A stretch of DNA of 64,000 bases from Longimicrobiales bacterium (GTDB lineage: Bacteria; Gemmatimonadota; Gemmatimonadetes; Longimicrobiales; Gaopeijiaceae): contig CBDFMQ010000002.1 of assembly GCA_965249725.1 (NCBI GenBank), forward strand, positions 2,560,001 through 2,624,000, written 5' to 3'. A program made the position numbers and the translations under genes. Every line of letters begins with the position of its first letter. Position 1 is the stretch's first letter. Below, in pieces: positions 34,596-49,063 of this stretch. The notes below the pieces were generated by a model. It made no database searches, had not been told where the DNA came from, and worked only from the letters and a program-made list of their open reading frames with translations.

Positions 34596-34715
34596 CGCAT
34601 CGCTCACAAACTCAACGACAGACCTCGTAAACGACTCGGCTTCTTCACCCCTAAGGAGTGTTATGAAGAAAAACTATGAGCCCCTTGCATGTTGCACTTC
34701 AAAGTTGAACTCAAG
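34596..34715 (+). mobile_element. IS30-family right-end remnant
   Basis: Encodes IAHKLNDRPRKRLGFFTPKECYEEKL* followed by terminal TGTTGCACTTCAAAGTTGAACTCAAG; closely similar to 41166-41285. Confidence 0.85.
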
Positions 34716-34738
34716 AAGCCCAGAAGCACCTGTCTGGC

Positions 34739-35254
34739 CTAGGGTGAGGTCGCACCCTTCCATTTCTTGGCGAGTCGCACCCAGCGGACAGCCATCGACC
34801 GTGAGTAGGTCATCTGTTCCCCAGGATAGATTTCAGCTAACTCCGCGGACTCGTGCTCGGAGGCCCACGCAGTCAGCGGTATCATCGCCTCCGACAACGA
34901 GACCTTGCCCCACGTCACCTCGTGGAGCTGGCGGGATATGAGGCCGGTGGGGGACAAAGTGAAGACCGAGCGGAATGCGAGGCGCCCAACTCCGACTAGG
35001 TCGAGGAAGTCGTTACCCTCCGAGCCCTGAATCGTGACCGTACGGAGCGATTCCTCGACAAGTTGCCACTCCAATCGGCCGTTCGCGCCCACATCCCACT
35101 CTAGCGCGGTCGCCGCCTGACCCTTCGCCAAAGTGAATCCGGCTCCGGCGAACTCCAGTTCGAACTCCGGCGCGAGGCACGCCAAGGCCTCTTGAAGGGA
35201 GTGATCGCCTAGGTGCCCGAGGTATGCGCCAACGATCTCCGCCCCGTCACCCAT
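34739..35254 (-). CDS. Cassette gene: SnoaL/NTF2-like hypothetical protein
   Basis: ATG follows GTTAGAA core site and GGAGG RBS; YLGHL...ALACLAPEF pattern. Confidence 0.65.
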   Translation of the reverse strand: MGDGAEIVGAYLGHLGDHSLQEALACLAPEFELEFAGAGFTLAKGQAATALEWDVGANGRLEWQLVEESLRTVTIQGSEGNDFLDLVGVGRLAFRSVFTLSPTGLISRQLHEVTWGKVSLSEAMIPLTAWASEHESAELAEIYPGEQMTYSRSMAVRWVRLAKKWKGATSP

Positions 35255-35279
35255 CCTCTTCCTCCCCGTCTGCTGGGCT

Positions 35280-35448
35280 TTCTAACGGATTGCGATTCAC
35301 CTCACTGCGTTCGGTGGTCTCGGCGTAGAGCAAACCGATCTTCGAAATCAGTACGGCGCCTCGGCTCTGCTACGCAGCTAAGATGGTGACCGCAAGCGAA
35401 GCGCGCGAGCGGGATGCCTACCGCGACAGTAGCAATCGCTTGTTAGAT
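35280..35448 (-). repeat. attC-like recombination site 1 (complete, 169 bp)
   Basis: Minus strand ATCTAAC-AAGCG-ATTGCTAC ... GGTGAAT-CGCAATCC-GTTAGAA; imperfect long palindrome. Confidence 0.85.
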
Positions 35449-35737
35449 GTTGCTGCCGAATAGGTGGGGAGATTCGGCTTCCGGTAGCTGGCTGAAGCGA
35501 GGACCCAATGTGCCGCCGCTGAACGCCGCGCCGAAGCCGCCTAGGCCCATCAAAGATCGCCAGGAGACTCAGGCTCCACAATGCGACCCGGGCCAACGCC
35601 TGATCGGGAGCCCGAGTCGGGCCGCCCCCTTGCGGGTCGGCGTGCCCACATGCTCACTTGAGTGTTGGCGGGCACAGCTTCTCAAGGAGTGAGGCTGGGG
35701 TCGCAGTGCTGCCGCCCCTTTCCAGGAGGCCGAAGAC

Positions 35738-36463
35738 ATGCGCTTCATGAGAGTCGTATCCGCCGGTGCCTTTGCCTTGGTGCTCGGCTGTTCCGGGACC
35801 GATACACCGATCGAATACCTGGACGCCGTGACTGCCGATCCGAACCACTACTCGGTCGAGTTCGAGAACGACGCCGCGCGCCTCATCCGCATCACCTACG
35901 GGCCAGGCGAGTCTTCGGTCATGCATCGGCACCCGCCGAACTGCGCGATCTTCCTTCACGATCAGCCGGCGACGATGGAGTCCCCGGACGGCGAGGTGAC
36001 GGAGGCGCAGGCGACCGACGCGGGGACGGTGAATTGCACCGAAGGCGAGGTCCACCTGCCGACCAACGCCGGTGATGGTGAGCTTGAACTCATTCTCGTC
36101 GAATTCGAAGACGCTGGGATGGCCGCTTCCGACGAGATGCCGGATGCGCCCCACGCGGTCACGGCCGACCCCGATCACTATTCGGTCGAGTTCGAGAACG
36201 AAGCAGTGCGGGTCGTCCGGGTCCGCTACGGCGCTGGCGAAACGTCGATCATGCACCACCATCCCGCGTATTGCGCGGTCATCATCCAAGAACAGCCGGT
36301 CACGTTCGAGCTTCCCGACGGCTCCGTGGAGGATGCGCCGGAAGGCGAGCTCGGAACGTTGAACTGCGTCGACGCCGGAATGCACTCGCCGACGAACAAT
36401 GGCCAGGGCGAGCTCGATGCCATTCTCATCGAATTCAAGGGGCGCGCCACGCGGGCTGGCTGA
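35738..36463 (+). CDS. Cassette gene: tandem two-domain cupin lipoprotein
   Basis: LVLGC lipobox; duplicated AVTADP.HYSVEFEN...YG.GE.S.MH.HP...H.PTN. Confidence 0.85.
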   Translation: MRFMRVVSAGAFALVLGCSGTDTPIEYLDAVTADPNHYSVEFENDAARLIRITYGPGESSVMHRHPPNCAIFLHDQPATMESPDGEVTEAQATDAGTVNCTEGEVHLPTNAGDGELELILVEFEDAGMAASDEMPDAPHAVTADPDHYSVEFENEAVRVVRVRYGAGETSIMHHHPAYCAVIIQEQPVTFELPDGSVEDAPEGELGTLNCVDAGMHSPTNNGQGELDAILIEFKGRATRAG

Positions 36464-36566
36464 GAGTTCGCCGAGCGATCCGCGGACGGGACGCGACGCC
36501 TCGGTGGACCGCGCTCGGTGCGAGAGTGTCTCGTGCTCGACAGCGCCCACCGGACGCGCTGGCGAC

Positions 36567-36654
36567 ATCTAACGGATTGCGATTCACCTCACTGCGTTCG
36601 GTGGTCTCGGCGTAGAGCAAACCGATCTTCGAAATCAGTACGGCGCCTCGGCTC
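36567..36654 (-). repeat. attC-like site 2, conserved half (split by IS3)
   Basis: 36569-36654 is identical to 35282-35367. Confidence 0.85.
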
Positions 36655-36693
36655 GGAGCCTGTCAACGCCAGTGAGACACTCTTGGGAATTAA

Positions 36694-37701
36694 TTAGAGA
36701 GCAATCTCCTGTGTCGTGAGGGAGGGGGTTGGAGGATTGATCCAGACGGCCTCCGGGAGCGGTTTGGGCTTCGGCTCACCGGAGACGAAGCGGTCGGGAT
36801 GAGCGGCCCAGGCCTCGCGTAGCACGGCCTGCCTGCCGGCGATGACCTGATCTGCATTCCCGAAGTGGACCTGTTCGGGGGTCAGCATCGAGATACCACC
36901 ATGGCGGTGCTCGGCGTTGTACCAGCGGAAGAACGAGCGACAGAAGGTTTTGGCCTGGCCCTGATCCTCGAACCGTCCAGGAAACGAGGGATGGTACTTC
37001 AAGGTCTTGAACTGGGCTTCGGAGAACGGATTGTCATCCGACACCTGAGGTCGGCTCAGCGAGCGGGTCACCCCGAGATCGGCGAGGAGCTGAGCCGTGC
37101 ATTGGCTCGTCATCGGAGCTCCTCGATCCGAGTGCAAGGTCAGGACCTGGGGCTGGACGCCATGCTTCAGGCAACTCTGCTGGATCAGGCGCCCGGCCAA
37201 GGCCGAGCTCTCCCGATCCGCCACCATCCATCCCACGATGTAGCGGCTGAAGATGTCCATGATAACGTAGAGGTAGAAGTAGCTCCACTTCCTCGGCCCC
37301 AGCAGCCGTGTGATATCCCAGGACCAGACCTGGCCCGGGCCCGTCGCCATCAACTCGGGTTTCTGGTATTCGGGATGACTCCGCTGCGCTCGGCGCTCTC
37401 GAACTGGCACTTGGGAGGCCAGAACGCGATACATCGTACGTTCGCTGCACAGGTAGACGTCTTCGTCGAGCAGGGTCGCCACAACCTCGGCCGGGGACCG
37501 GTCCACGAATCGCTCCGAACACAGCGTGTCGAAGACCTTGTCTCGTTCCTTCTCGCTCAAGGCACGGGCTGGGGTCGGGCGGGGCTGCTGATGCCCGGTC
37601 GATGGCCTCCGACGACGATAGAACGTGGCTCGGGCGACCCTGAGCGCATCGCACGCGGGCTTTACCCCTACGTACGTGGCCAGCGCCTCGGCCGCCTTCA
37701 C
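36694..37701 (-). CDS. IS3 transposase OrfB (DDE/rve)
   Basis: WSWDIT, LHSDRG, DDNPFSEAQFKTLKY, YNAEHRH; GTG start overlaps orfA TGA. Confidence 0.92.
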   Translation of the reverse strand: MKAAEALATYVGVKPACDALRVARATFYRRRRPSTGHQQPRPTPARALSEKERDKVFDTLCSERFVDRSPAEVVATLLDEDVYLCSERTMYRVLASQVPVRERRAQRSHPEYQKPELMATGPGQVWSWDITRLLGPRKWSYFYLYVIMDIFSRYIVGWMVADRESSALAGRLIQQSCLKHGVQPQVLTLHSDRGAPMTSQCTAQLLADLGVTRSLSRPQVSDDNPFSEAQFKTLKYHPSFPGRFEDQGQAKTFCRSFFRWYNAEHRHGGISMLTPEQVHFGNADQVIAGRQAVLREAWAAHPDRFVSGEPKPKPLPEAVWINPPTPSLTTQEIAL

Positions 37702-38150
37702 GAGTTCGTCCCGTCCTTGAGGCTCAATCCCAGCAGCCCTGCAACTTTTCCCTGGACGTCGAGGATCAGGCGCGCCTTCTCGAGTTCCTTCTCCAGGCGA
37801 GTGTTCTCGCGCTCCAGCTTGCGCACTTTCCCCTCCAGCGGATTCCGTTCGCTCGGCTTTCGACCTCGTCTCTTCGACAGCGCTCTCAGCGACCCACTCC
37901 GCACCGCCTTGCGCCATGTCGTCAGGTGCGACGAGTACAAGCCCTCCCGTCGCAGGAGTCGCCCTACCTCTCCCGGCTCCGTGCACCGGTCCGCTTCTTC
38001 GACGACCCGCAGCTTGTACGACGGACTAAACCGTCGGCGCGTCGGCTTATCTACCACCTCCGCGTCCGGAGCAGCTGCCGCGCTTCGCTTACCCTCCCAG
38101 GTTAGTGGGGCGATTCCATTCTCTTCCATTCTCTCTCGGTGTCTCAGCAT
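37698..38150 (-). CDS. IS3 transposase OrfA (HTH + leucine zipper)
   Basis: RRRFSPSYKLRVV...LRREGLYSSHLTTWR...LERENTRLEKEL. Confidence 0.9.
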   Translation of the reverse strand: MLRHRERMEENGIAPLTWEGKRSAAAAPDAEVVDKPTRRRFSPSYKLRVVEEADRCTEPGEVGRLLRREGLYSSHLTTWRKAVRSGSLRALSKRRGRKPSERNPLEGKVRKLERENTRLEKELEKARLILDVQGKVAGLLGLSLKDGTNS

Positions 38151-38222
38151 CCTCGGTTTCTCTGCCTTCGCCCTACTCTAATTCTTTACTCGTTCCGTGT
38201 CTCACCTAAGTTGGCAGAGAGG

Positions 38223-38308
38223 GGCTCTGCTGCGCGACCAAGATGCCGACCGCAAGCGAAGCGGGCGAGCCAGATGCTCGTCGCGACTGCAGCAATCGCT
38301 TGTTAGAC
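38223..38308 (-). repeat. attC-like site 2, variable half
   Basis: Aligns with 35363-35448 (GACCGCAAGCGAAGCG...AGCAATCGCTTGTTAG). Confidence 0.85.
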
Positions 38309-38425
38309 CGAAACGATGCCACCATCTGAATGACCTGCAGAGTCGACGCCCCTGCGTCCGCCTACTAACAGCATATGCGGTTGTGTTCGAATCAGTGCTG
38401 AGGCGAAAGCGTGGATCCCTCCGAG

Positions 38426-40735
38426 CTAACCCCCGGGCCGCCCCTGGTAACGGTCGAGCCAGCCCAGGGTCTCGCGGATCAGCACGTCGCGCGGGACGAA
38501 GTGACTCCCGAGCGTGACCACCCAATTCTTGTCCTGCTCTGGGGTGCCGACGAGCTCGAAATACCGTCGCGACCGTTTCGATAGGGCGTCGAACTCGCCG
38601 GTCAGCAATAGGAGCGGTACCTCGACCCTGGGAAGCGCGTTGATCGGATCGATCTCGGGTGTCGTGCCCAGGTCTATGAGGGGGCCCACGGAGATGATCG
38701 CGGAACGGAGGCGGGGCTCCTGCGCCAGGGCCGTGGGGCCATTCAAGCCTCCCCAGCTGTAGCCGTGGTACGCGACGGATCGGTTATCGATGTCGCGACG
38801 CGTCTCGAGGTAGTCCAGCGTGCGGCGTAGATCCTTGACGCCCGCGATCGTGTTGTCCCGGTACGCCGTCGTGTTGAGGTCGGGCATTCCCGTGCCGTCG
38901 CCCCGCTCGAAGCTCCCGAGATAGACGGGAAAGGCAACGGCCCGTCCGCTCTTGAGGAGGAAGTCGGCCTTCTTTGCGAAGTATTCGTCCACGGATTCGA
39001 GAACGAACGTGTCCCAGCCCGGCCAATACACGACTGTTCGGAACGGAGGCGACCCGATCGTAGGCAGATACAGGTAGAGCACCATTGGCTCGCCGTCGTA
39101 GCCGGGATCGAAGGTGACCCGCTCCCGGGTCCAACTCCGCGAGTGCACCGGCTCGTCCGAGACGACGTTGAGCGGCCCCCGGTCGTAGTCGAAATGCCCT
39201 CCCCACGCGGCGTATACCTGGTCCGACACCGGCTCTCGCATGATCGCCGGGGACGCGTCTTGGGCCTCGCTGACAGGAGCGCGTACGCGCGACGCCACCT
39301 CTGACTCCTCGTCGGTCATGGCGAGCCGGAAGCCGTTTCCCGGGGCCCGGTCCAGCGGAGGGGCCGCGGGGCTAACCTCTCCGACGATGTAGTACGGATC
39401 GTTCCAGCTGCCGCCGAGGACGACATACTGATCGCCGAGCTGTGTGGCCGTCCATTCCCGCACGTTACCGGCCATGTCGAAGGCGCCCGTGTAGCTCATG
39501 GCGCGGCTATCCAGGACGGACCGGGCCCCGGCACCGTCGAAATTGCTGGCGGGCAGGAGCCACGGGAGCGTCGCTATGGCGAGGCCGCGCCGCCAATGAT
39601 GCGCGGTCGGGAGCTCCTCGCCGACGAATCGGGCGTATGCGGCCGCCTCGTACCAGCTGACGCCGGAGACGGGGAAGTCGTCCTCGCCCACCGCATAGTC
39701 CCCGGCCTCCCACGTGCTGGGGCCAGGCTGAAGGGTGCGATCCGTGAACAGAGTTCGCTCCTCGTCCCACGGAACGGTGTCCCCATCGACGACGACCGGA
39801 TCCCACAGGGACGACCGCTGATAGCCGCCCGCATCGACGAATTCCTTGAACTTCGCGTTCGTGACCTCGTACCGGTCGAGAAAGTAGTCCCGAAGAAGGA
39901 GGGACTCGCCCTCGAGGTTCAGGCGCCAGCCGGCGACGCGGACCTTCCCATCGGACAGCGTCTCCTCCGTATCGAGCGCGAACGTCTCCGGACCCACCAG
40001 CAGCCCGAGTCCACGGTTCGCTGATTGCGTCGCCAGCGTCCCCCAGTTGACGTGCCCGCCCCCGACGGTGCGGTTCAACGGACGGTAGCCGTCGAGTTCG
40101 AGACGGAGGCGGGATAGGCCGTAGGGGAAGTGGATGTCCTCGAGCGGTGTCCTACCCAGGACCACCCACTCGTCTTCCGGACGATCGAAGGGTTGGTATG
40201 AGACGATCGCTCCAGCCGGATCGGATCCGATCGTCGTTCGCCACGCCAGACGAGGCCATAGCTCCCCGAGCTCGGGCGCTTCCGGAAGCCGAGCCTCCGC
40301 CTCCCTTGTGAGCGCGTACGCTCCGTGCCAATCCGCCACCGCCAGACGCGCATCGATGTCCGGCAGCGCGACGCGCTCCAGCCACTCTCGATCCGGGTCC
40401 CGCACGAGGAACGAATAGGAGGCCGCGCCGAGCAGCGCGGCCACGAGGGCGGTCGCCGCGTAGCTCACGAATCGAGGTGCGGCGGGCGCGGGCCCCTCCG
40501 AGACCGTGGGCCGTTCGCGCGCGATCCCCTCCGGGGTGAGCTCGTAGGCCCAGGCGAGGAAGACGGCCAAAAAGAACCCGAGCCCGAGCAGCACGATGAC
40601 CAGGCTGTCCGTCCACGCCGGGAGGTTGAGCGGCTCCTCGACCGTCGTGATGACCTCTAGCAGCCCCCAGGCGACGACCGCATACGCGACCGCGACCCGG
40701 ACGACCTTCCGCCGCCTCAATTCGCGCCAAATCAA
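38426..40735 (-). CDS. Membrane-anchored FGE-sulfatase (SUMF1) domain + alpha/beta-hydrolase fusion; probable cassette gene
   Basis: TTG start before ELRRRKVVRVAVAY TM motif; YEVTN, PVSGVSWYEAAAY, DMAGNVREW, GFR; GYSWGG/GEFD/GSH triad; followed by attC 2. Confidence 0.85.
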   Translation of the reverse strand: MIWRELRRRKVVRVAVAYAVVAWGLLEVITTVEEPLNLPAWTDSLVIVLLGLGFFLAVFLAWAYELTPEGIARERPTVSEGPAPAAPRFVSYAATALVAALLGAASYSFLVRDPDREWLERVALPDIDARLAVADWHGAYALTREAEARLPEAPELGELWPRLAWRTTIGSDPAGAIVSYQPFDRPEDEWVVLGRTPLEDIHFPYGLSRLRLELDGYRPLNRTVGGGHVNWGTLATQSANRGLGLLVGPETFALDTEETLSDGKVRVAGWRLNLEGESLLLRDYFLDRYEVTNAKFKEFVDAGGYQRSSLWDPVVVDGDTVPWDEERTLFTDRTLQPGPSTWEAGDYAVGEDDFPVSGVSWYEAAAYARFVGEELPTAHHWRRGLAIATLPWLLPASNFDGAGARSVLDSRAMSYTGAFDMAGNVREWTATQLGDQYVVLGGSWNDPYYIVGEVSPAAPPLDRAPGNGFRLAMTDEESEVASRVRAPVSEAQDASPAIMREPVSDQVYAAWGGHFDYDRGPLNVVSDEPVHSRSWTRERVTFDPGYDGEPMVLYLYLPTIGSPPFRTVVYWPGWDTFVLESVDEYFAKKADFLLKSGRAVAFPVYLGSFERGDGTGMPDLNTTAYRDNTIAGVKDLRRTLDYLETRRDIDNRSVAYHGYSWGGLNGPTALAQEPRLRSAIISVGPLIDLGTTPEIDPINALPRVEVPLLLLTGEFDALSKRSRRYFELVGTPEQDKNWVVTLGSHFVPRDVLIRETLGWLDRYQGRPGG

Positions 40736-40934
40736 GGTTCCAGTCTCCCAGCGTGAGAAACGCCATCCGTTCCCGGAACCGAACCTAGGCAAGATAGGCG
40801 GTCCAAGGACCGCCACAAGCGGCGCGCGTGGACAGGGAAGATGGTCGGGCCGCGTCCACCGGAATAGCCTCGGTCTTCGCCCAGCACGGTGCCCGCCCTC
40901 GAACTCTCCTGCCCGACGTGCGTTGTCTCCCTGA

Positions 40935-41285
40935 TCCGTCGCTCTCATCAAGAACGCTCACCGCACTGTCCGTACCATCACGGTCGACAACGGTACCGAG
41001 TTCCACGGCTACAAAACCATCGAGGCCGCCACCGTCTTTCGCTTCTACTTCGCTACGCCCTATCACTCCTGGGAACGCGGAACCAGCGAGAACACCAACG
41101 GGCTCATCCGTCAGTATCTACCGAAGCGCCAGAGCATGGCTCACCTCACTCAGCGCCACTGCAATCGCATCGCTCGCAAACTCAACTCCCGACCCCGCAA
41201 ACGACTCGGGTTCCTCACCCCAAAGGAGTGTTATGAAACAAAACTATGAGCCCCTTGCGTGTTGCACTTCAAACTTGATCTCAGG
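40935..41285 (+). mobile_element. IS30-family 3' remnant
   Basis: RTITVDNGTEF...YFATPYHSWERGTSENTNGLIRQYLPK...LNSRPRKRLGFLTP* followed by TGTTGCACTTCAAACTTGATCTCAGG. Confidence 0.92.
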
Positions 41286-41348
41286 CGGCTCGCGTGAGTT
41301 CGCGTCTCGGCTAGTTTAGGTTTCTGGCTCCTCTCGGGAGATAGTGCC

Positions 41349-41798
41349 ATGGCAGAAAGTCGATATCCAGTGCCCGATACTGGAATCCTCGTCACACATC
41401 TTGTCGTTGCCGAGGACGTCGCAACCACGAGCGGCTTCTATTCTCAGGTACTCGGCGGTGAGATCGTCCATGAGGGCCGAGGCTCCCCCACCTTCGTGCG
41501 GCTCGCCAACACCTGGATCATCGTGACCGAGGGGGGTTCCGGAACTCCCGACAAGCCGGATGTCGTCCTCGCCGTACCTAGCGACTTGAGTCGATTCGAC
41601 GCGTTCCTCAACATCCGCGTTGCGGACATTGAGGAAACGTATCGGGAGTGGACTGCGAGGGGCGCCGAGTTCATCACTCCACCCCTCGACAATCACGGCT
41701 ACGAGAAGCGGTGCTACGTTCGCGACCCGGACGGACGGATCATCGAGGTAGGGCAGCACACCGGAATGTTGGCAGTCTTCGGGATCGAAAGCGACTGA
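41349..41798 (+). CDS. Cassette gene: VOC/glyoxalase family protein
   Basis: HLVVAEDV...FYSQVLG, LNIRVADI, RCYVRDPDGRIIEVGQ. Confidence 0.9.
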   Translation: MAESRYPVPDTGILVTHLVVAEDVATTSGFYSQVLGGEIVHEGRGSPTFVRLANTWIIVTEGGSGTPDKPDVVLAVPSDLSRFDAFLNIRVADIEETYREWTARGAEFITPPLDNHGYEKRCYVRDPDGRIIEVGQHTGMLAVFGIESD

Positions 41799-41815
41799 GC
41801 AGATCTGGTAGAGCC

Positions 41816-41933
41816 GCCTAACGGATTGCGATTCACCTCACTGCGTTCGGTGGTCTCGGCGTAGAGCAAACCGATCTTCGAAATCAGTACGGCGCCTCGG
41901 CTCTACTGATGCACGGCTAAGATGCGTGATCGC
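41816..41933 (-). repeat. attC-like site 3 (conserved half intact, other half truncated or diverged)
   Basis: 41818-41903 is identical to the other two copies; similarity fades after CTAAGATG...GATCGC. Confidence 0.8.
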
Positions 41934-41976
41934 GGTTGACCCATTGCTTCCTGTACTCACGCAATACTGGCATGTA

Positions 41977-42474
41977 CTAGTTGCGCTCGTCGAGATCCGG
42001 CGCCACCCAGTCGACCGGTGGAGGATTTCTCTTGCAGCGGTTTATATTCACTTTAAAACCTGCGTCGCAGCCATTCATTACCATACGCCGCTCAGCAATA
42101 CGCCAATTCGAATCGACGCGCACTAATCTGTCCTGATACTGGCCAAGGATCGTTGCAGTCGATCCATCAGAACGTTCGTGCCAGGCATGAACATAGCTAT
42201 TTGCCAGGGCACCGTCATTGTCGAATTTGATTTGAACGTTGGAAAGATGGTGTGAAGTTCTCGACCATCGCCACATCCGTTCAAGGGACTTTTCGAGCGC
42301 CGCAGCGCTGTTACTCTGAAGTCGTTCGTCCGGGCCGTAGTCGACTGTACAATCACTTGTGAAAAGCGCCGACAGCAACGGCAGATCCATTCGGTCAAGC
42401 GCATAGCAATATTGGATGAGCACATCGGTTATTTCTTGCCGGGCGATTAGAGATTCAGTTGATTGGGAACTTAT
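41977..42474 (-). CDS. SnoaL-like/NTF2 family protein (SnoaL_4 type)
   Basis: ARQEITDVLIQYCYALD, TSHHLSNVQI, GQYQDRL..WRIAER; the RBS-positioned codon is ATA. Confidence 0.8.
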   Translation of the reverse strand: MSSQSTESLIARQEITDVLIQYCYALDRMDLPLLSALFTSDCTVDYGPDERLQSNSAAALEKSLERMWRWSRTSHHLSNVQIKFDNDGALANSYVHAWHERSDGSTATILGQYQDRLVRVDSNWRIAERRMVMNGCDAGFKVNINRCKRNPPPVDWVAPDLDERN

Positions 42475-42486
42475 GATCGGCCTCCT

Positions 42487-43263
42487 CTAGCGGACATAGG
42501 TCGCGCCGTTTACATCCAACGTGGCCCCGGATAAATGGCGGACGGTACCGGTGGCAAGAAATGCAATCAGATCGGCGATTTCTTCGGGCGGCACCCACTC
42601 ACCCATTGCCAAAGTACTGGTCACAATATCTTCGCCGCCCTGCAGCTCCGCGAAGTCCAGCGACATCTTGGTCCGTACGATTCCGGGTGCAATGATGTAC
42701 GTATAAATATTGTCTTTCGAGTAACCACGTGCGATTGACTGGGCTACTGCTTTAATCGCTCCTTTTGAAGCTGCATACGCGATCATGTCCGAGTTCGTAA
42801 CGCCACGTTGCGCAACCCAGCTCGACATCAGGATGATGACGCCACCGCCACGTTCTCGAAAATGTCGAACTGCCGCTCGCATCAGGCGTGCCTGCGCCTG
42901 AACATTTACCTGGAGATGGCTGGCCCACGCAGCATTCCAGTTTTCCTCGGTGTCGTCGATTCCGCCGGATGGATCGATCATCGCAGCATTGAGCACGAGC
43001 ACATCAACTCGACCGCGCCAACCGACCGCCTCCTCCCAAATACGCTCGACGGCCGCGTTGTCGTCAAAGTCTCCGCCAACGAAAAACTTGTGTTCAGTGG
43101 AAATTTTCGCGAGCGCAGCTTGCGCGCCTTCCAAATCGCCGTCCTTCCCCCGGTGATGTGCGATCAGCTCAGCACCGGAACTTCCGATGCGCTTCGCGGT
43201 TGCGGCACCAATCCCCTGCGATGCGCCGGTCAATAGAACAACTTTATCTTTCAGACTCTGCAT
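42487..43263 (-). CDS. SDR family oxidoreductase
   Basis: TGASQGIG, LNAA, YAASKG, IAPG, LDVNGA; start at MQSLKDK. Confidence 0.9.
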   Translation of the reverse strand: MQSLKDKVVLLTGASQGIGAATAKRIGSSGAELIAHHRGKDGDLEGAQAALAKISTEHKFFVGGDFDDNAAVERIWEEAVGWRGRVDVLVLNAAMIDPSGGIDDTEENWNAAWASHLQVNVQAQARLMRAAVRHFRERGGGVIILMSSWVAQRGVTNSDMIAYAASKGAIKAVAQSIARGYSKDNIYTYIIAPGIVRTKMSLDFAELQGGEDIVTSTLAMGEWVPPEEIADLIAFLATGTVRHLSGATLDVNGATYVR

Positions 43264-43284
43264 GCTTTTGACTCGGGTTGGGTG

Positions 43285-43476
43285 TAAGAGCAAATACAAA
43301 AATCGCGTTGATACCGCGTGTCGGTTGAATCTCCGGGTGAATGGAAAGCACGCGTCGCTCCGGCTCAGCGGTCGCGCCACCAACAGGCACTGCAATGTAC
43401 TGGCGGCCGTCCATTGCGTAACTTACCGGGTGAGCAGACACCGGTGCACTAACAATCGTCTCCCACAAAACTTCAC
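43285..43476 (-). pseudogene. C-terminal fragment of a PQQ-dependent dehydrogenase
   Basis: GEVLWET...PVSYAMDGRQYIAVPVGG...IFVFAL, the typical last propeller blade. Confidence 0.75.
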
Positions 43477-43518
43477 CTTGCGCGCCTTCCAAATCGCCGT
43501 CCTTCCCCCGGTGATGTG
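43477..43518. repeat. Exact 42-bp direct copy of 43119-43160 (inside the SDR gene)
   Basis: CTTGCGCGCCTTCCAAATCGCCGTCCTTCCCCCGGTGATGTG present at both positions. Confidence 0.95.
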
Positions 43519-43531
43519 ATCCGCCCCCACC

Positions 43532-43659
43532 CGCGGGTAGCTTCTCCAGTGCCTTCCGGAGCGCCGCGTCGATGTTGGCTGGAATCGCCGGACGTTGCTC
43601 TGTAGCTGACACAGGCTTACCCGCAATGATTTTGCCGAGTACCGCCTGCGCCGTGGTGC
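43532..43659 (-). pseudogene. Internal fragment of a Ser/Thr kinase paralogous to 9566-12256
   Basis: TAQAVLGKIIAGKPVSATEQRPAIPANIDAALRKALEKLPA versus TAQAVLGKIIQGVPVSARDTRPSVPANVDAAIRKSLEKLPA. Confidence 0.85.
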
Positions 43660-43956
43660 CCGGGCGGGGCTCGTTCTTCTATTGTGTACCTCCACGCGGC
43701 GTGGTCAACACCCGACTCGCCAGGCGCATCAAGACACGACGGTCAGCCTGGAGGGACACCATCCTGCCGGTGCATACGCCCGCACATCCTCCGGTGCGAT
43801 CCGCGCAACCTACCGATTCGAGTATCGAGTACAGAGGTCGATTTCGTCGGGCAGCGGATCGGAGTATTGCGACGGAGGGCGGCGTTCTTTGAAGGCTCCG
43901 GCGATCCACAGGACTCATCCATGGAGCGGTGTCTCGCTGGACCCTATGTGGACCCC

Positions 43957-43994
43957 AAAACGAAAAACGGCCAGCCCCTTAAGGGCCAGCCGTT
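43957..43994 (-). terminator. Probable intrinsic terminator downstream of tRNA-Lys
   Basis: AACGGCTGGCCC...GGGCTGGCCGTT stem followed by TTTCGTTTT. Confidence 0.6.
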
Positions 43995-44020
43995 CCCGTA
44001 ACTCCTTGTCCTGCAACTAG

Positions 44021-44093
44021 TGCCCCGCCAGGGACTCGAACCCCGAACCTACTGATTAAGAGTCAGTTGCTCTACCAGTTGAGCTAGCGGGGC
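44021..44093 (-). tRNA. tRNA-Lys(CTT)
   Basis: GCCCCGCTAGCTCAACTGGTAGAGCAACTGACTCTTAATCAGTAGGTTCGGGGTTCGAGTCCCTGGCGGGGCA; cloverleaf fold; followed by CTA rather than CCA. Confidence 0.97.
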
Positions 44094-44190: not shown

Positions 44191-44580
44191 CTAGCTCCCG
44201 TCGTCCTCCACCACCTCGGGCCTCTGCAGGTCGAGTGAGTCGGAGTCCAAATGGGTCAGATGCCCGGCGGAGTTGCGGATCGACTCCCACGTCTCGGGAT
44301 CGCCCTCGATGTGGCATTCGGCACAACGCTCGTTCGGCACGTCTGCATGGACCTCGATCTCGATGGGCCGATCCACCACCTGGCTGAGGCCCATGGCACT
44401 CCGCTCCACGATGGTGGGCTGATGGCAGGCCTTGCAGCCGAGACCACGATGGGCGCTGCGTGCGAACTCCTCGAACGGCACCTCCATGAGGTGACAAGAG
44501 ACGCAGAAGTCGTTGTCGTGCTGGACGTAATCGTAGGTGCGATACGCGTAGAGGCCGGCCACGCCACCGGTGGCCACCAT
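44191..44580 (-). CDS. NapC/NirT-type multiheme cytochrome c N-terminal region, probably truncated
   Basis: TM end + HDNDFCVSCH, CKACH, CAECH; ends shortly after GHLTH. Confidence 0.65.
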   Translation of the reverse strand: MVATGGVAGLYAYRTYDYVQHDNDFCVSCHLMEVPFEEFARSAHRGLGCKACHQPTIVERSAMGLSQVVDRPIEIEVHADVPNERCAECHIEGDPETWESIRNSAGHLTHLDSDSLDLQRPEVVEDDGS

Positions 44581-48565: not shown

Positions 48566-49063
48566 CTACTCGCCGGTGTCGGGCGCCTCGTCGGGCGCCT
48601 CGTCGGGCTCCTCGTCGGGCTCCTCGTCGGGCTCCTCGTCGGGCTCCTCGTCGGGCTCCTCGTCGGGCGCCTCCGACTCCAGGGTCAGCGCGGCGGAGTT
48701 GATGCAGTAGCGGAGGCCCGTGGGCTGGGGGCCGTCGGGGAAGATGTGTCCGAGATGTCCGTCACACGCCGCGCACAACACCTCGGTGCGCCGCATGCCC
48801 AAGGTGTTGTCCTCCTCGGTGCGGACGTTGTCCGAGTCCGCCGCCTCGTAGAAGCTGGGCCAACCGCACCCCGCGTCGAACTTGGTCTCGGAGTCGAACA
48901 AGCGCGTGCCGCAGCCGGCGCACACATAAGTCCCCGGGGCGGTGGTGTCCCAGTGCTCTCCCGTAAAGGCCCGCTCGGTCCCCTTCCTCCTGAGGACCTC
49001 GTACTGCTCGGGAGTCAGAGACTCACGCCATTCGGCATCGGTCTTGTTCGGCTTGTCGGACAC
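48566..49063 (-). CDS. msrB: Peptide-methionine (R)-S-oxide reductase
   Basis: [41 protein letters not shown]. Confidence 0.96.
48578..48673. repeat. 12-bp tandem repeat x8 encoding the (E[E/A]PD)8 tail of MsrB
   Basis: GTCGGGC(G/T)CCTC repeated 8 times. Confidence 0.95.

Follow-up and report, generated by a model that had tools for sequence, protein, structure and literature searches.

Why should the attC sites of an integron cassette array be some 170 bp long? The question arises from a 64,000-nt stretch of a Longimicrobiales genome (hereafter the window; positions 2560001-2624000 of contig C3 of the source genome, G000), where three repeats lie within 6.7 kb. An initial annotation, made from the sequence alone, had read them as the unusually long attC sites of an integron array without an integrase. 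All three repeats were recovered where that annotation had placed them, and their length has another origin: comparison with the attC family of this genome shows that each consists of a 100-bp family site plus 69 extra bases at a single point. The 169-bp sites are composites, not a long type of attC. Taken together, we read the locus, with a probability of about 0.62, as a decaying cluster of attC sites lacking integron-integrases (CALIN) in which each L' box carries the same gene-less 69-bp element, likely placed there by precise insertion through a trans-acting enzyme working on single-stranded DNA (ssDNA), and predicted to block recombination by the integron integrase IntI. The sites and inserts are as follows:

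35280-35448, minus strand: attC site 1; R' at 35280-35286, R'' at 35442-35448; 169 bp from core to core
36567-38308, minus strand: attC site 2; R' at 36567-36573, R'' at 38302-38308; filled by the insert and divided by an insertion sequence (IS) of the IS3 family
41816-41930, minus strand: attC site 3; insert present on the R' side, R'' half gone near 41930
35297-35365, minus strand: insert copy 1, in L' of site 1; no target duplication
36584-36652, minus strand: insert copy 2, in site 2; identical to copy 1
41833-41901, minus strand: insert copy 3, in site 3; identical to copies 1 and 2

The insertion point is GCAGA^AT on the top strand, within the L' box, which is thereby divided. The opening 86 bp are identical across the three window sites, far above chance; the inserts differ at 0 of 69 positions, and the R'' halves of sites 1 and 2 at 15 of 80. 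Empty sites of the same family measure 96-118 bp (median 100), which falls inside the known attC range of 57-141 bp, where natural variation resides in the terminal structure (PMC5371416). The initial annotation had also described each repeat as one imperfect palindrome; the whole 169-bp site folds no more stably than its shuffles on either strand (z = 0.07-0.09), and the single long palindrome was rejected. Six attC sites in G000 are filled in this way.

The insert is kin to elements found at the T-loops of tRNA and tmRNA genes (G and L numbers below denote genomes and loci in the genome comparisons). Its family numbers 16 copies in G000, ten with T-loop-type flanks in addition to the six in attC. 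The tRNA-linked copies sit at GGTTCGA^ATCC, in either spare 3' ends of tRNA genes or complete duplicates of such genes, and an intact copy of the tRNA is present nearby wherever the tRNA could be assigned; two duplicate tRNA-Pro genes become whole again once the insert is taken out. When tRNA-linked copies alone (28 of them) were used to build a covariance model, it recovered the three inserts of the window, their ends exact (42.6 bits, E 2e-8; the following match scored 15 bits). Among 141 genomes of the order, this model detected copies in 11, tmRNA ends included. Two tRNA-linked copies, L301 and L302, have the short form of the terminal hairpin (hairpin B) seen in the window. In a pattern scan across GTDB, whose figures rest on the 80 loci listed, 46 had T-loop flanks, three had attC flanks, and 31 had others, which we read as chance with the exception of L127. 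Records titled Gemmatimonadota account for 47 of the 49 T-loop or attC loci among those listed, and the titled records with a related element are Gemmatimonadota, mostly Longimicrobiales; outside the family, a loose phylum-wide pattern returned mostly chance matches. Filled attC sites occur in at least five genomes, and a second insert subtype, which groups with the tRNA-linked rows (91/88), occupies the same attC base in G011 and L139. A metagenome scan for filled attC gave two matches, the one inspected being chance, and Rfam held no family matching the element in 15 loci.

Several arrangements of the tRNA-linked copies were observed alongside. Tandem whole or partial tRNA duplicates, each with an element in its T-loop, occur at C3:1903345-1904200 and at L102/L167, L118, and L171, and tandems of this kind have 164-186 bp periods in several genomes. 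Half copies, in which the head end alone abuts foreign DNA, occur at C3:943737, 974151, and 1220798, and at L227 and L244.

The element is 69-94 bp long and consists of a constant head, a variable arm with four closing G-C pairs, a repeat of the head, and the covarying hairpin B. Of 69 copies, 37 begin with T and 32 with G, so that the first base does not represent a target duplication. In L307 and L027, units of two subtypes stand head to tail, joined exactly at CGGC|TGAG, which defines where the unit ends and shows that no duplication is made. The element was considered as a miniature inverted-repeat transposable element (MITE) and rejected, since it has neither terminal inverted repeats nor a target duplication. 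On the sense strand, the loop of hairpin B reads C-GNA-G in 55 of the 69 copies. Triloops of this type are very stable in DNA, and this points to a function of the element in single-stranded form.

What would such an insert do to recombination? IntI requires paired R and L boxes (PMC5371416, PMC2727003). When the insert was added in silico to 19 empty sites, the median probability of the distal L stem fell from 0.65 to 0.00; for site 1 it is 0.83 without and 0.00003 with the insert, and for site 2, with the IS3 element removed in silico, 0.08. The attC-like fold with extrahelical bases proposed for these repeats holds for the empty 100-bp sites; the filled 169-bp sites are predicted to lose their L stem and with it the intact pairing of L' with L'' expected of an attC site. 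We predict from this modelling that filled sites are inactive for IntI recombination. In G000, one of six filled sites is intact; of the roughly 31 unfilled sites that have an R' end, 20 are (p 0.066; the 20 complete sites are our reading of the profile search table), site 1 being the sole uninterrupted filled site. Damage to R'' ends also marks the filled sites seen in four other genomes. A functional long variant, in which the additional 69 bp form a protruding branch and the site remains a substrate for IntI, would find some backing in an R box that still pairs (0.92-0.93), a proximal L stem that can partly form in site 2 (0.52), the complementary ends of the cupin cassette described below, and the presence of filled sites in at least five genomes. 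We nonetheless hold it to be very improbable: the extra DNA divides the L' box, whereas natural length variation lies in the terminal structure (PMC5371416), the distal L stem has a probability near zero in filled sites, and R'' is lost or damaged in five of the six filled G000 sites as well as in those seen in G001, G002, G011, and L139.

The way in which the insert reached the L' boxes can be outlined, at this stage from sequence comparisons. On the sense strand of a hairpin, the element would enter immediately 3' of GA (T-loops, TTCGA^; L', CAGA^), and its insertion would make no target duplication. It may survive only in dispensable targets such as spare tRNA ends and attC sites. Its C-GNA-G mini-hairpins lie on the lagging-strand template here, as might be expected of a folded-ssDNA substrate (HUH-like, REP-like; REP, repetitive extragenic palindrome). 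Filled sites would then decay, and IS30, IS3, and IS1111 elements would finish off the array. We think it probable that the insert moves by precise hopping without target duplication. The broader proposition, that a gene-less 69-94-bp family of Gemmatimonadota is mobile and inserts precisely and without duplication into the folded ssDNA of both T-loops and attC L' boxes, by a mover outside the HUH, IS110, and intron types, and thereby freezes cassettes, is in our view evenly poised between true and false.

Alternatively, the element may have entered attC once or twice by accident; homologous recombination or gene conversion would then have spread it, IntI would have moved filled cassettes, and attC as such would not be targeted. 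The three window sites have the same 15 bp on the left side of the insert, as this alternative would have it, and searches of the carrier genomes yielded no mover. It conflicts with the junctions. The first difference lies 4-11 nt past the junction, with no co-converted tract, and homology ends 3-6 nt past the insert in every window-site pair, as it does between unrelated empty sites, the R'' halves being of different subtypes. The nearest empty sites of site 1, site 2, and C3:757k belong to three different attC subtypes, and the insert copy at C3:970k is 68/69 identical despite different flanks on both sides. The exact tandem doubles, moreover, imply that the unit inserts by itself. We therefore regard spread from one or two accidental entries as unlikely, if far from negligible, and prefer precise insertion into each L' box.

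A number of results weigh against precise insertion or the reading built on it, and some of them favor the alternative just described. Within the genus (G000, G001, and G002), the window subtype is confined to attC sites; one filled attC copy appears to be inherited between two of these species (G000 and G002); and a single clade for all attC inserts was not rejected (p-AU 0.138). No filled and empty pair of one same site was found. The strand bias of the element cannot be separated from gene orientation. Since the insert search patterns themselves specified the GAT and TC flanks, the invariance of these flanks is no evidence, and the covariation of hairpin B, with double changes at five pairs, has to be read knowing that its three outer pairs were a criterion for selecting copies. 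A shuffled insert abolishes the distal L stem equally, and the loss of this stem is thus an effect of the position of the insert. Finally, candidate movers are missing: Y1/RAYT genes (PF01797) were found in none of six carrier genomes, G000 included, against six of 14 controls (genomes 90-96% complete); the GIY-YIG frames of G000 are all large (628 and 470 aa), with no small gene; half-element models detected no longer version of the element in G000; and viral contigs contained no copy of it. An empty orthologous locus was likewise not found, the window flanks lying on different contigs or in different places in relatives.

Other candidates for the mover fared no better. A Y2 search returned only a short fragment. 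IntI was set aside because, by eye, the insertion point is off its cleavage position, and because four of five T-loop carriers tested have no IntI over the cut-off (three of these being fragmented assemblies). The IS1111-type element of G000 was rejected, the T-loop and element words being absent from its non-coding region, and guide pairing of the IS200/IS605 type did not fit, again by eye. G000 has one lone reverse transcriptase gene (L312:1279-2520, equivalent to C3:198388-199629; 413 aa) with a YRRVGDD motif, which we take to stand where YADD is usual; this gene (C3:198610) was dismissed as the mover, as it is not at any attC found.

Set against known systems, the insert fails the tests for an IS1111-attC element, a MITE, a REP with its cognate enzyme, and a group IIC-attC intron. 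With the IS1111-attC group (ISKpn4, ISPst6; PMC11187229) it shares a fixed attC base, a single orientation, and the absence of a target duplication; unlike these, it has no DEDD transposase, sub-terminal inverted repeats, guide RNA region, or open reading frame, it also occurs in tRNA T-loops, and its site is about 10 nt from that of the IS1111-type elements of G000. There is no likeness between the insert and the ends of the latter, and its motif is direct rather than inverted. Like REP sequences and their bacterial interspersed mosaic elements (TnpA-REP), and like IS200/IS605 ends (PMC8266576, PMC3733652), the insert family comprises small, gene-less, strand-specific, duplication-free hairpins, which share with the mosaic elements tandem or mosaic clusters and insertion into other palindromes. 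Unlike them, it has no GTAG tag (many copies have CGTC as part of the foot of the hairpin, which the window subtype does not), none of six carrier genomes has a Y1/RAYT gene, its copy number is low, and its targets are T-loops and attC. Repeats served by Ssn (GIY-YIG), such as NTS (PMC11893778), also combine hairpins, a conserved unpaired flank, and ssDNA, and differ in sequence and in their small GIY-YIG gene, of which G000 has none.

Group IIC-attC introns are mobile and home to attC hairpins; they are kilobase-long ribozymes with a reverse transcriptase and insert at the R'' end, whereas the insert is 69 bp long, non-coding, and located in L'. By analogy, it may work most like a REP-type non-autonomous hairpin element. 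Literature searches, subscription papers and supplements aside, returned no description of a T-loop element in attC, and a gene-less element bridging tRNA T-loops and attC is apparently undescribed.

The identity of the host sites as attC rests on the genome-wide family. About 40 whole or partial copies were detected in G000 in a dozen clusters, 20 of them complete according to a repeat profile. Empty 100-bp sites show an R'' box of the form RYYYAAC, an R' box of the form GTTRRRY, paired R and L boxes, an unpaired spacer, and an extrahelical base in L''; the L boxes are ATTGCTGC / GCAGAAT. In 26 complete sites, picked by a pattern that itself demanded the boxes, the minus-strand spacers are 5 nt between R'' and L'' and 8 nt (20 of 26) or 9 nt (6 of 26) between L' and R', which bears out the spacing of 5 and 8 nt first proposed for the window. 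The extrahelical base on the bottom strand is C in 26 of 26, while G is usual (PMC2727003). The two ends of the cupin cassette are complementary at 11 of 12 positions, as originally noted, and the ends of 12 of 13 other cassette intervals tested are so at 10-12 of 12. Genes of several arrays start 20-50 nt past R', on the strand corresponding to minus in the window, which upholds the minus-strand orientation assigned to this array. Judged by GC skew, the leading-strand template holds the attC bottom strands of most arrays, the window's included, as reported for sedentary integrons (PMC5371416). Rfam gave no match at the window attC sites.

The host also has the matching integrase. Of 14 tyrosine recombinase matches in G000, none lies inside the window, where the initial annotation had seen no IntI; an IntI gene is present at C3:1028977-1029906, 1.57 Mb from the window array (335 bits against a TIGR02249 cut-off of 265). 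It has intact-looking RKHRHY motifs and the IntI-specific insertion, its nearest solved relative is VchIntI4 (E 7e-59), and an array of the window attC family lies directly 3' of it and co-oriented. We conclude that the CALIN assignment of the window array stands, the array belonging to the genome's own integron, and that G000 is not integrase-less. That the repeats might instead be intergenic REP/MITE-type sequences could be argued from the C as first extrahelical base (26/26) and from the R' spacer of 8-9 nt, both off the textbook pattern. This is scarcely credible, given that the same family is arrayed beside a bona fide IntI, that 12 of 13 intervals have complementary cassette ends, that genes begin just past R', that most arrays have their bottom strand on the template for the leading strand, and that IS1111-type elements are located inside sites.

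The integron at C3:1027236-1030607 (L004, L015) is complete, with intI upstream of and co-oriented with its array; it lies directly behind tRNA-Pro(TGG) and one T-loop element copy, and has an attI-like GTTAG near C3:1028770. Elsewhere, at C3:2265000-2318000, partial attC sites are clustered in an orientation opposite to replication, near a second recombinase at 2292816. Integrons have already been recorded in Gemmatimonadota (PMC8618304). The window array resembles CALIN and sedentary arrays in having at least two attC sites with no nearby intI and an IntI elsewhere on the replicon, in its variable single-gene cassettes and IS damage (Cury et al. 2016, PMC4889954), and in its bottom strand on the leading-strand template (PMC5371416). 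It departs from the norm in the 8-9-nt L'-R' spacer and C as first extrahelical base of its family, in a cognate intI that is co-oriented with and upstream of its own array, and in that all three surviving window sites are filled by the 69-bp insert.

Insertion sequences have damaged the array further:

36655-38223, minus strand: IS3-family element; 1569 bp, 4-bp duplication GCTC, within attC site 2
34596-34715, plus strand: IS30-family right-end remnant at the R'' flank of cassette 1, attC core lost; 82% to the complete IS30 of L210
40906-41285, plus strand: IS30-family remnant at the R'' flank of cassette 4, comprising the C-terminal part of the transposase and the right end; attC core lost

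The IS3-family element has five other full-length copies in G000 (99.9-100%), all at unrelated sites. Its conserved ends extend 6-7 bp beyond the TG...CA motif in all copies, and dozens of relatives were seen in G001, G002, and G005. Both IS30 remnants match L210 at the DNA level; the one near 41 kb reaches 115.7 bits with NF033563 (cut-off 80), which the full L210 relative also exceeds. Their right ends (34715 and 41285) lie exactly at the expected starts of attC cores, and the next bases complement the other cassette end, AAGCCCAG after 34715 in the case of cassette 1. Two further attC sites are thus lost to IS30-family ends at the R'' flank. Among relatives, 30 IS30 ends were compared, a set in which the two of the window and related copies are counted; in 12 of them, the bases that come next complement the following attC flank at 6-8/8 positions, as do 12 of 864 cross pairs; three of 11 further ends reach 7-8/8, and six of nine left ends lie directly after a GTTA box. 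In full relatives, the 3-bp duplication is exact in L199 and has one mismatch in L210 and L253, the window copies being right-end remnants. As seen in the window, L199, L210, L212, and L253, this IS30 group inserts just outside the attC R'' box in one orientation across the family; literature searches, with the same exceptions as above, found no account of IS30 targeting attC. IS1111-type elements (345-aa transposase, downstream non-coding region) were also seen in attC at C3:754450-755915, 2273764-2275225, 5642, and 752852, one of them in a site that also holds the 69-bp insert. These elements, a known class (PMC11187229), divide attC sites of G000 outside the window about 10 nt from the position of the insert.

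The cassette genes are the following:

34739-35254, minus strand: cassette 1 gene; 171 aa, SnoaL/NTF2-like (a lead only), start about 30 nt past R' of site 1
35738-36463, plus strand: cassette 2 gene; 241 aa, tandem cupin-like, inverted inside its cassette
38426-40732, minus strand: SUMF1 (FGE-sulfatase) and S9 peptidase gene, over Pfam cut-offs; probably cassette 3, of site 2, by position, its upstream end not being recognisable
41349-41798, plus strand: cassette 4 gene; 149 aa, VOC/glyoxalase family, inverted, VOC over the Pfam cut-off

The initial gene labels stand for SUMF1/S9 and VOC, and are weaker for the other two: the cupin match is under the Pfam cut-off (E 6e-4), and the cassette 1 gene has no Pfam match, its SnoaL-like label being a lead from the ESM Atlas (score 0.95), where 20-22% of members have SnoaL_2. 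Fos-family matches of the VOC gene are all far under cut-off. The description of the repeats as separating single unrelated genes fits the cupin unit, which is bounded by sites, and does not fit the SUMF1 and VOC genes, which occupy one shared interval between sites 2 and 3, with the IS30 remnant standing in place of the lost attC between them. The cupin gene was not found in two congeners, is patchy in the family (6/200), and has no relative in viral contigs. In three runs of one sample, read contigs enter the insert at each of the three sites by 13-15 nt, which is not enough to bridge it; in a second study, one run covers cassette 1 and 38313-41845, not the cupin unit, and no contig joins them.

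Around these genes, two further CTAAC motifs were noticed at 38355-38430, at the end of the SUMF1 gene; they were discounted as attC of the window family, having no copy elsewhere in G000. A stretch of low GC content (0.54) spans 41934-44093; it holds SnoaL and SDR genes, contains a 45-bp duplication (43116 / 43474), and adjoins tRNA-Lys(CTT) at 44021-44093; in G648 and G011, attC remnants lie within 13 kb of the same tRNA-Lys(CTT). A truncated multiheme cytochrome c gene (NapC/NirT-like; 44191-44580) also adjoins this tRNA. At 48566-48685, a 12-bp tandem repeat encodes the acidic EEPD tail of a protein, presumably MsrB-like.

Overall, the CALIN itself is ordinary, and the insert is the point of interest. 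The attC-targeting elements found in print are all autonomous (IS1111-attC elements and group IIC-attC introns), and this one is gene-less. Little beyond a GA in a hairpin arm is common to its T-loop and attC targets, and the target rule is narrowed accordingly; the three identical neighboring copies point to a lineage with recent mover activity. Over-long attC calls, more generally, can be composites. If filled sites are indeed dead, insertion would add one more route to cassette fixation and CALIN decay; and if the reading as a whole is true, this would be the first gene-less class of attC-targeting element, as well as a handle on the unexplained mini-elements of tRNA T-loops.

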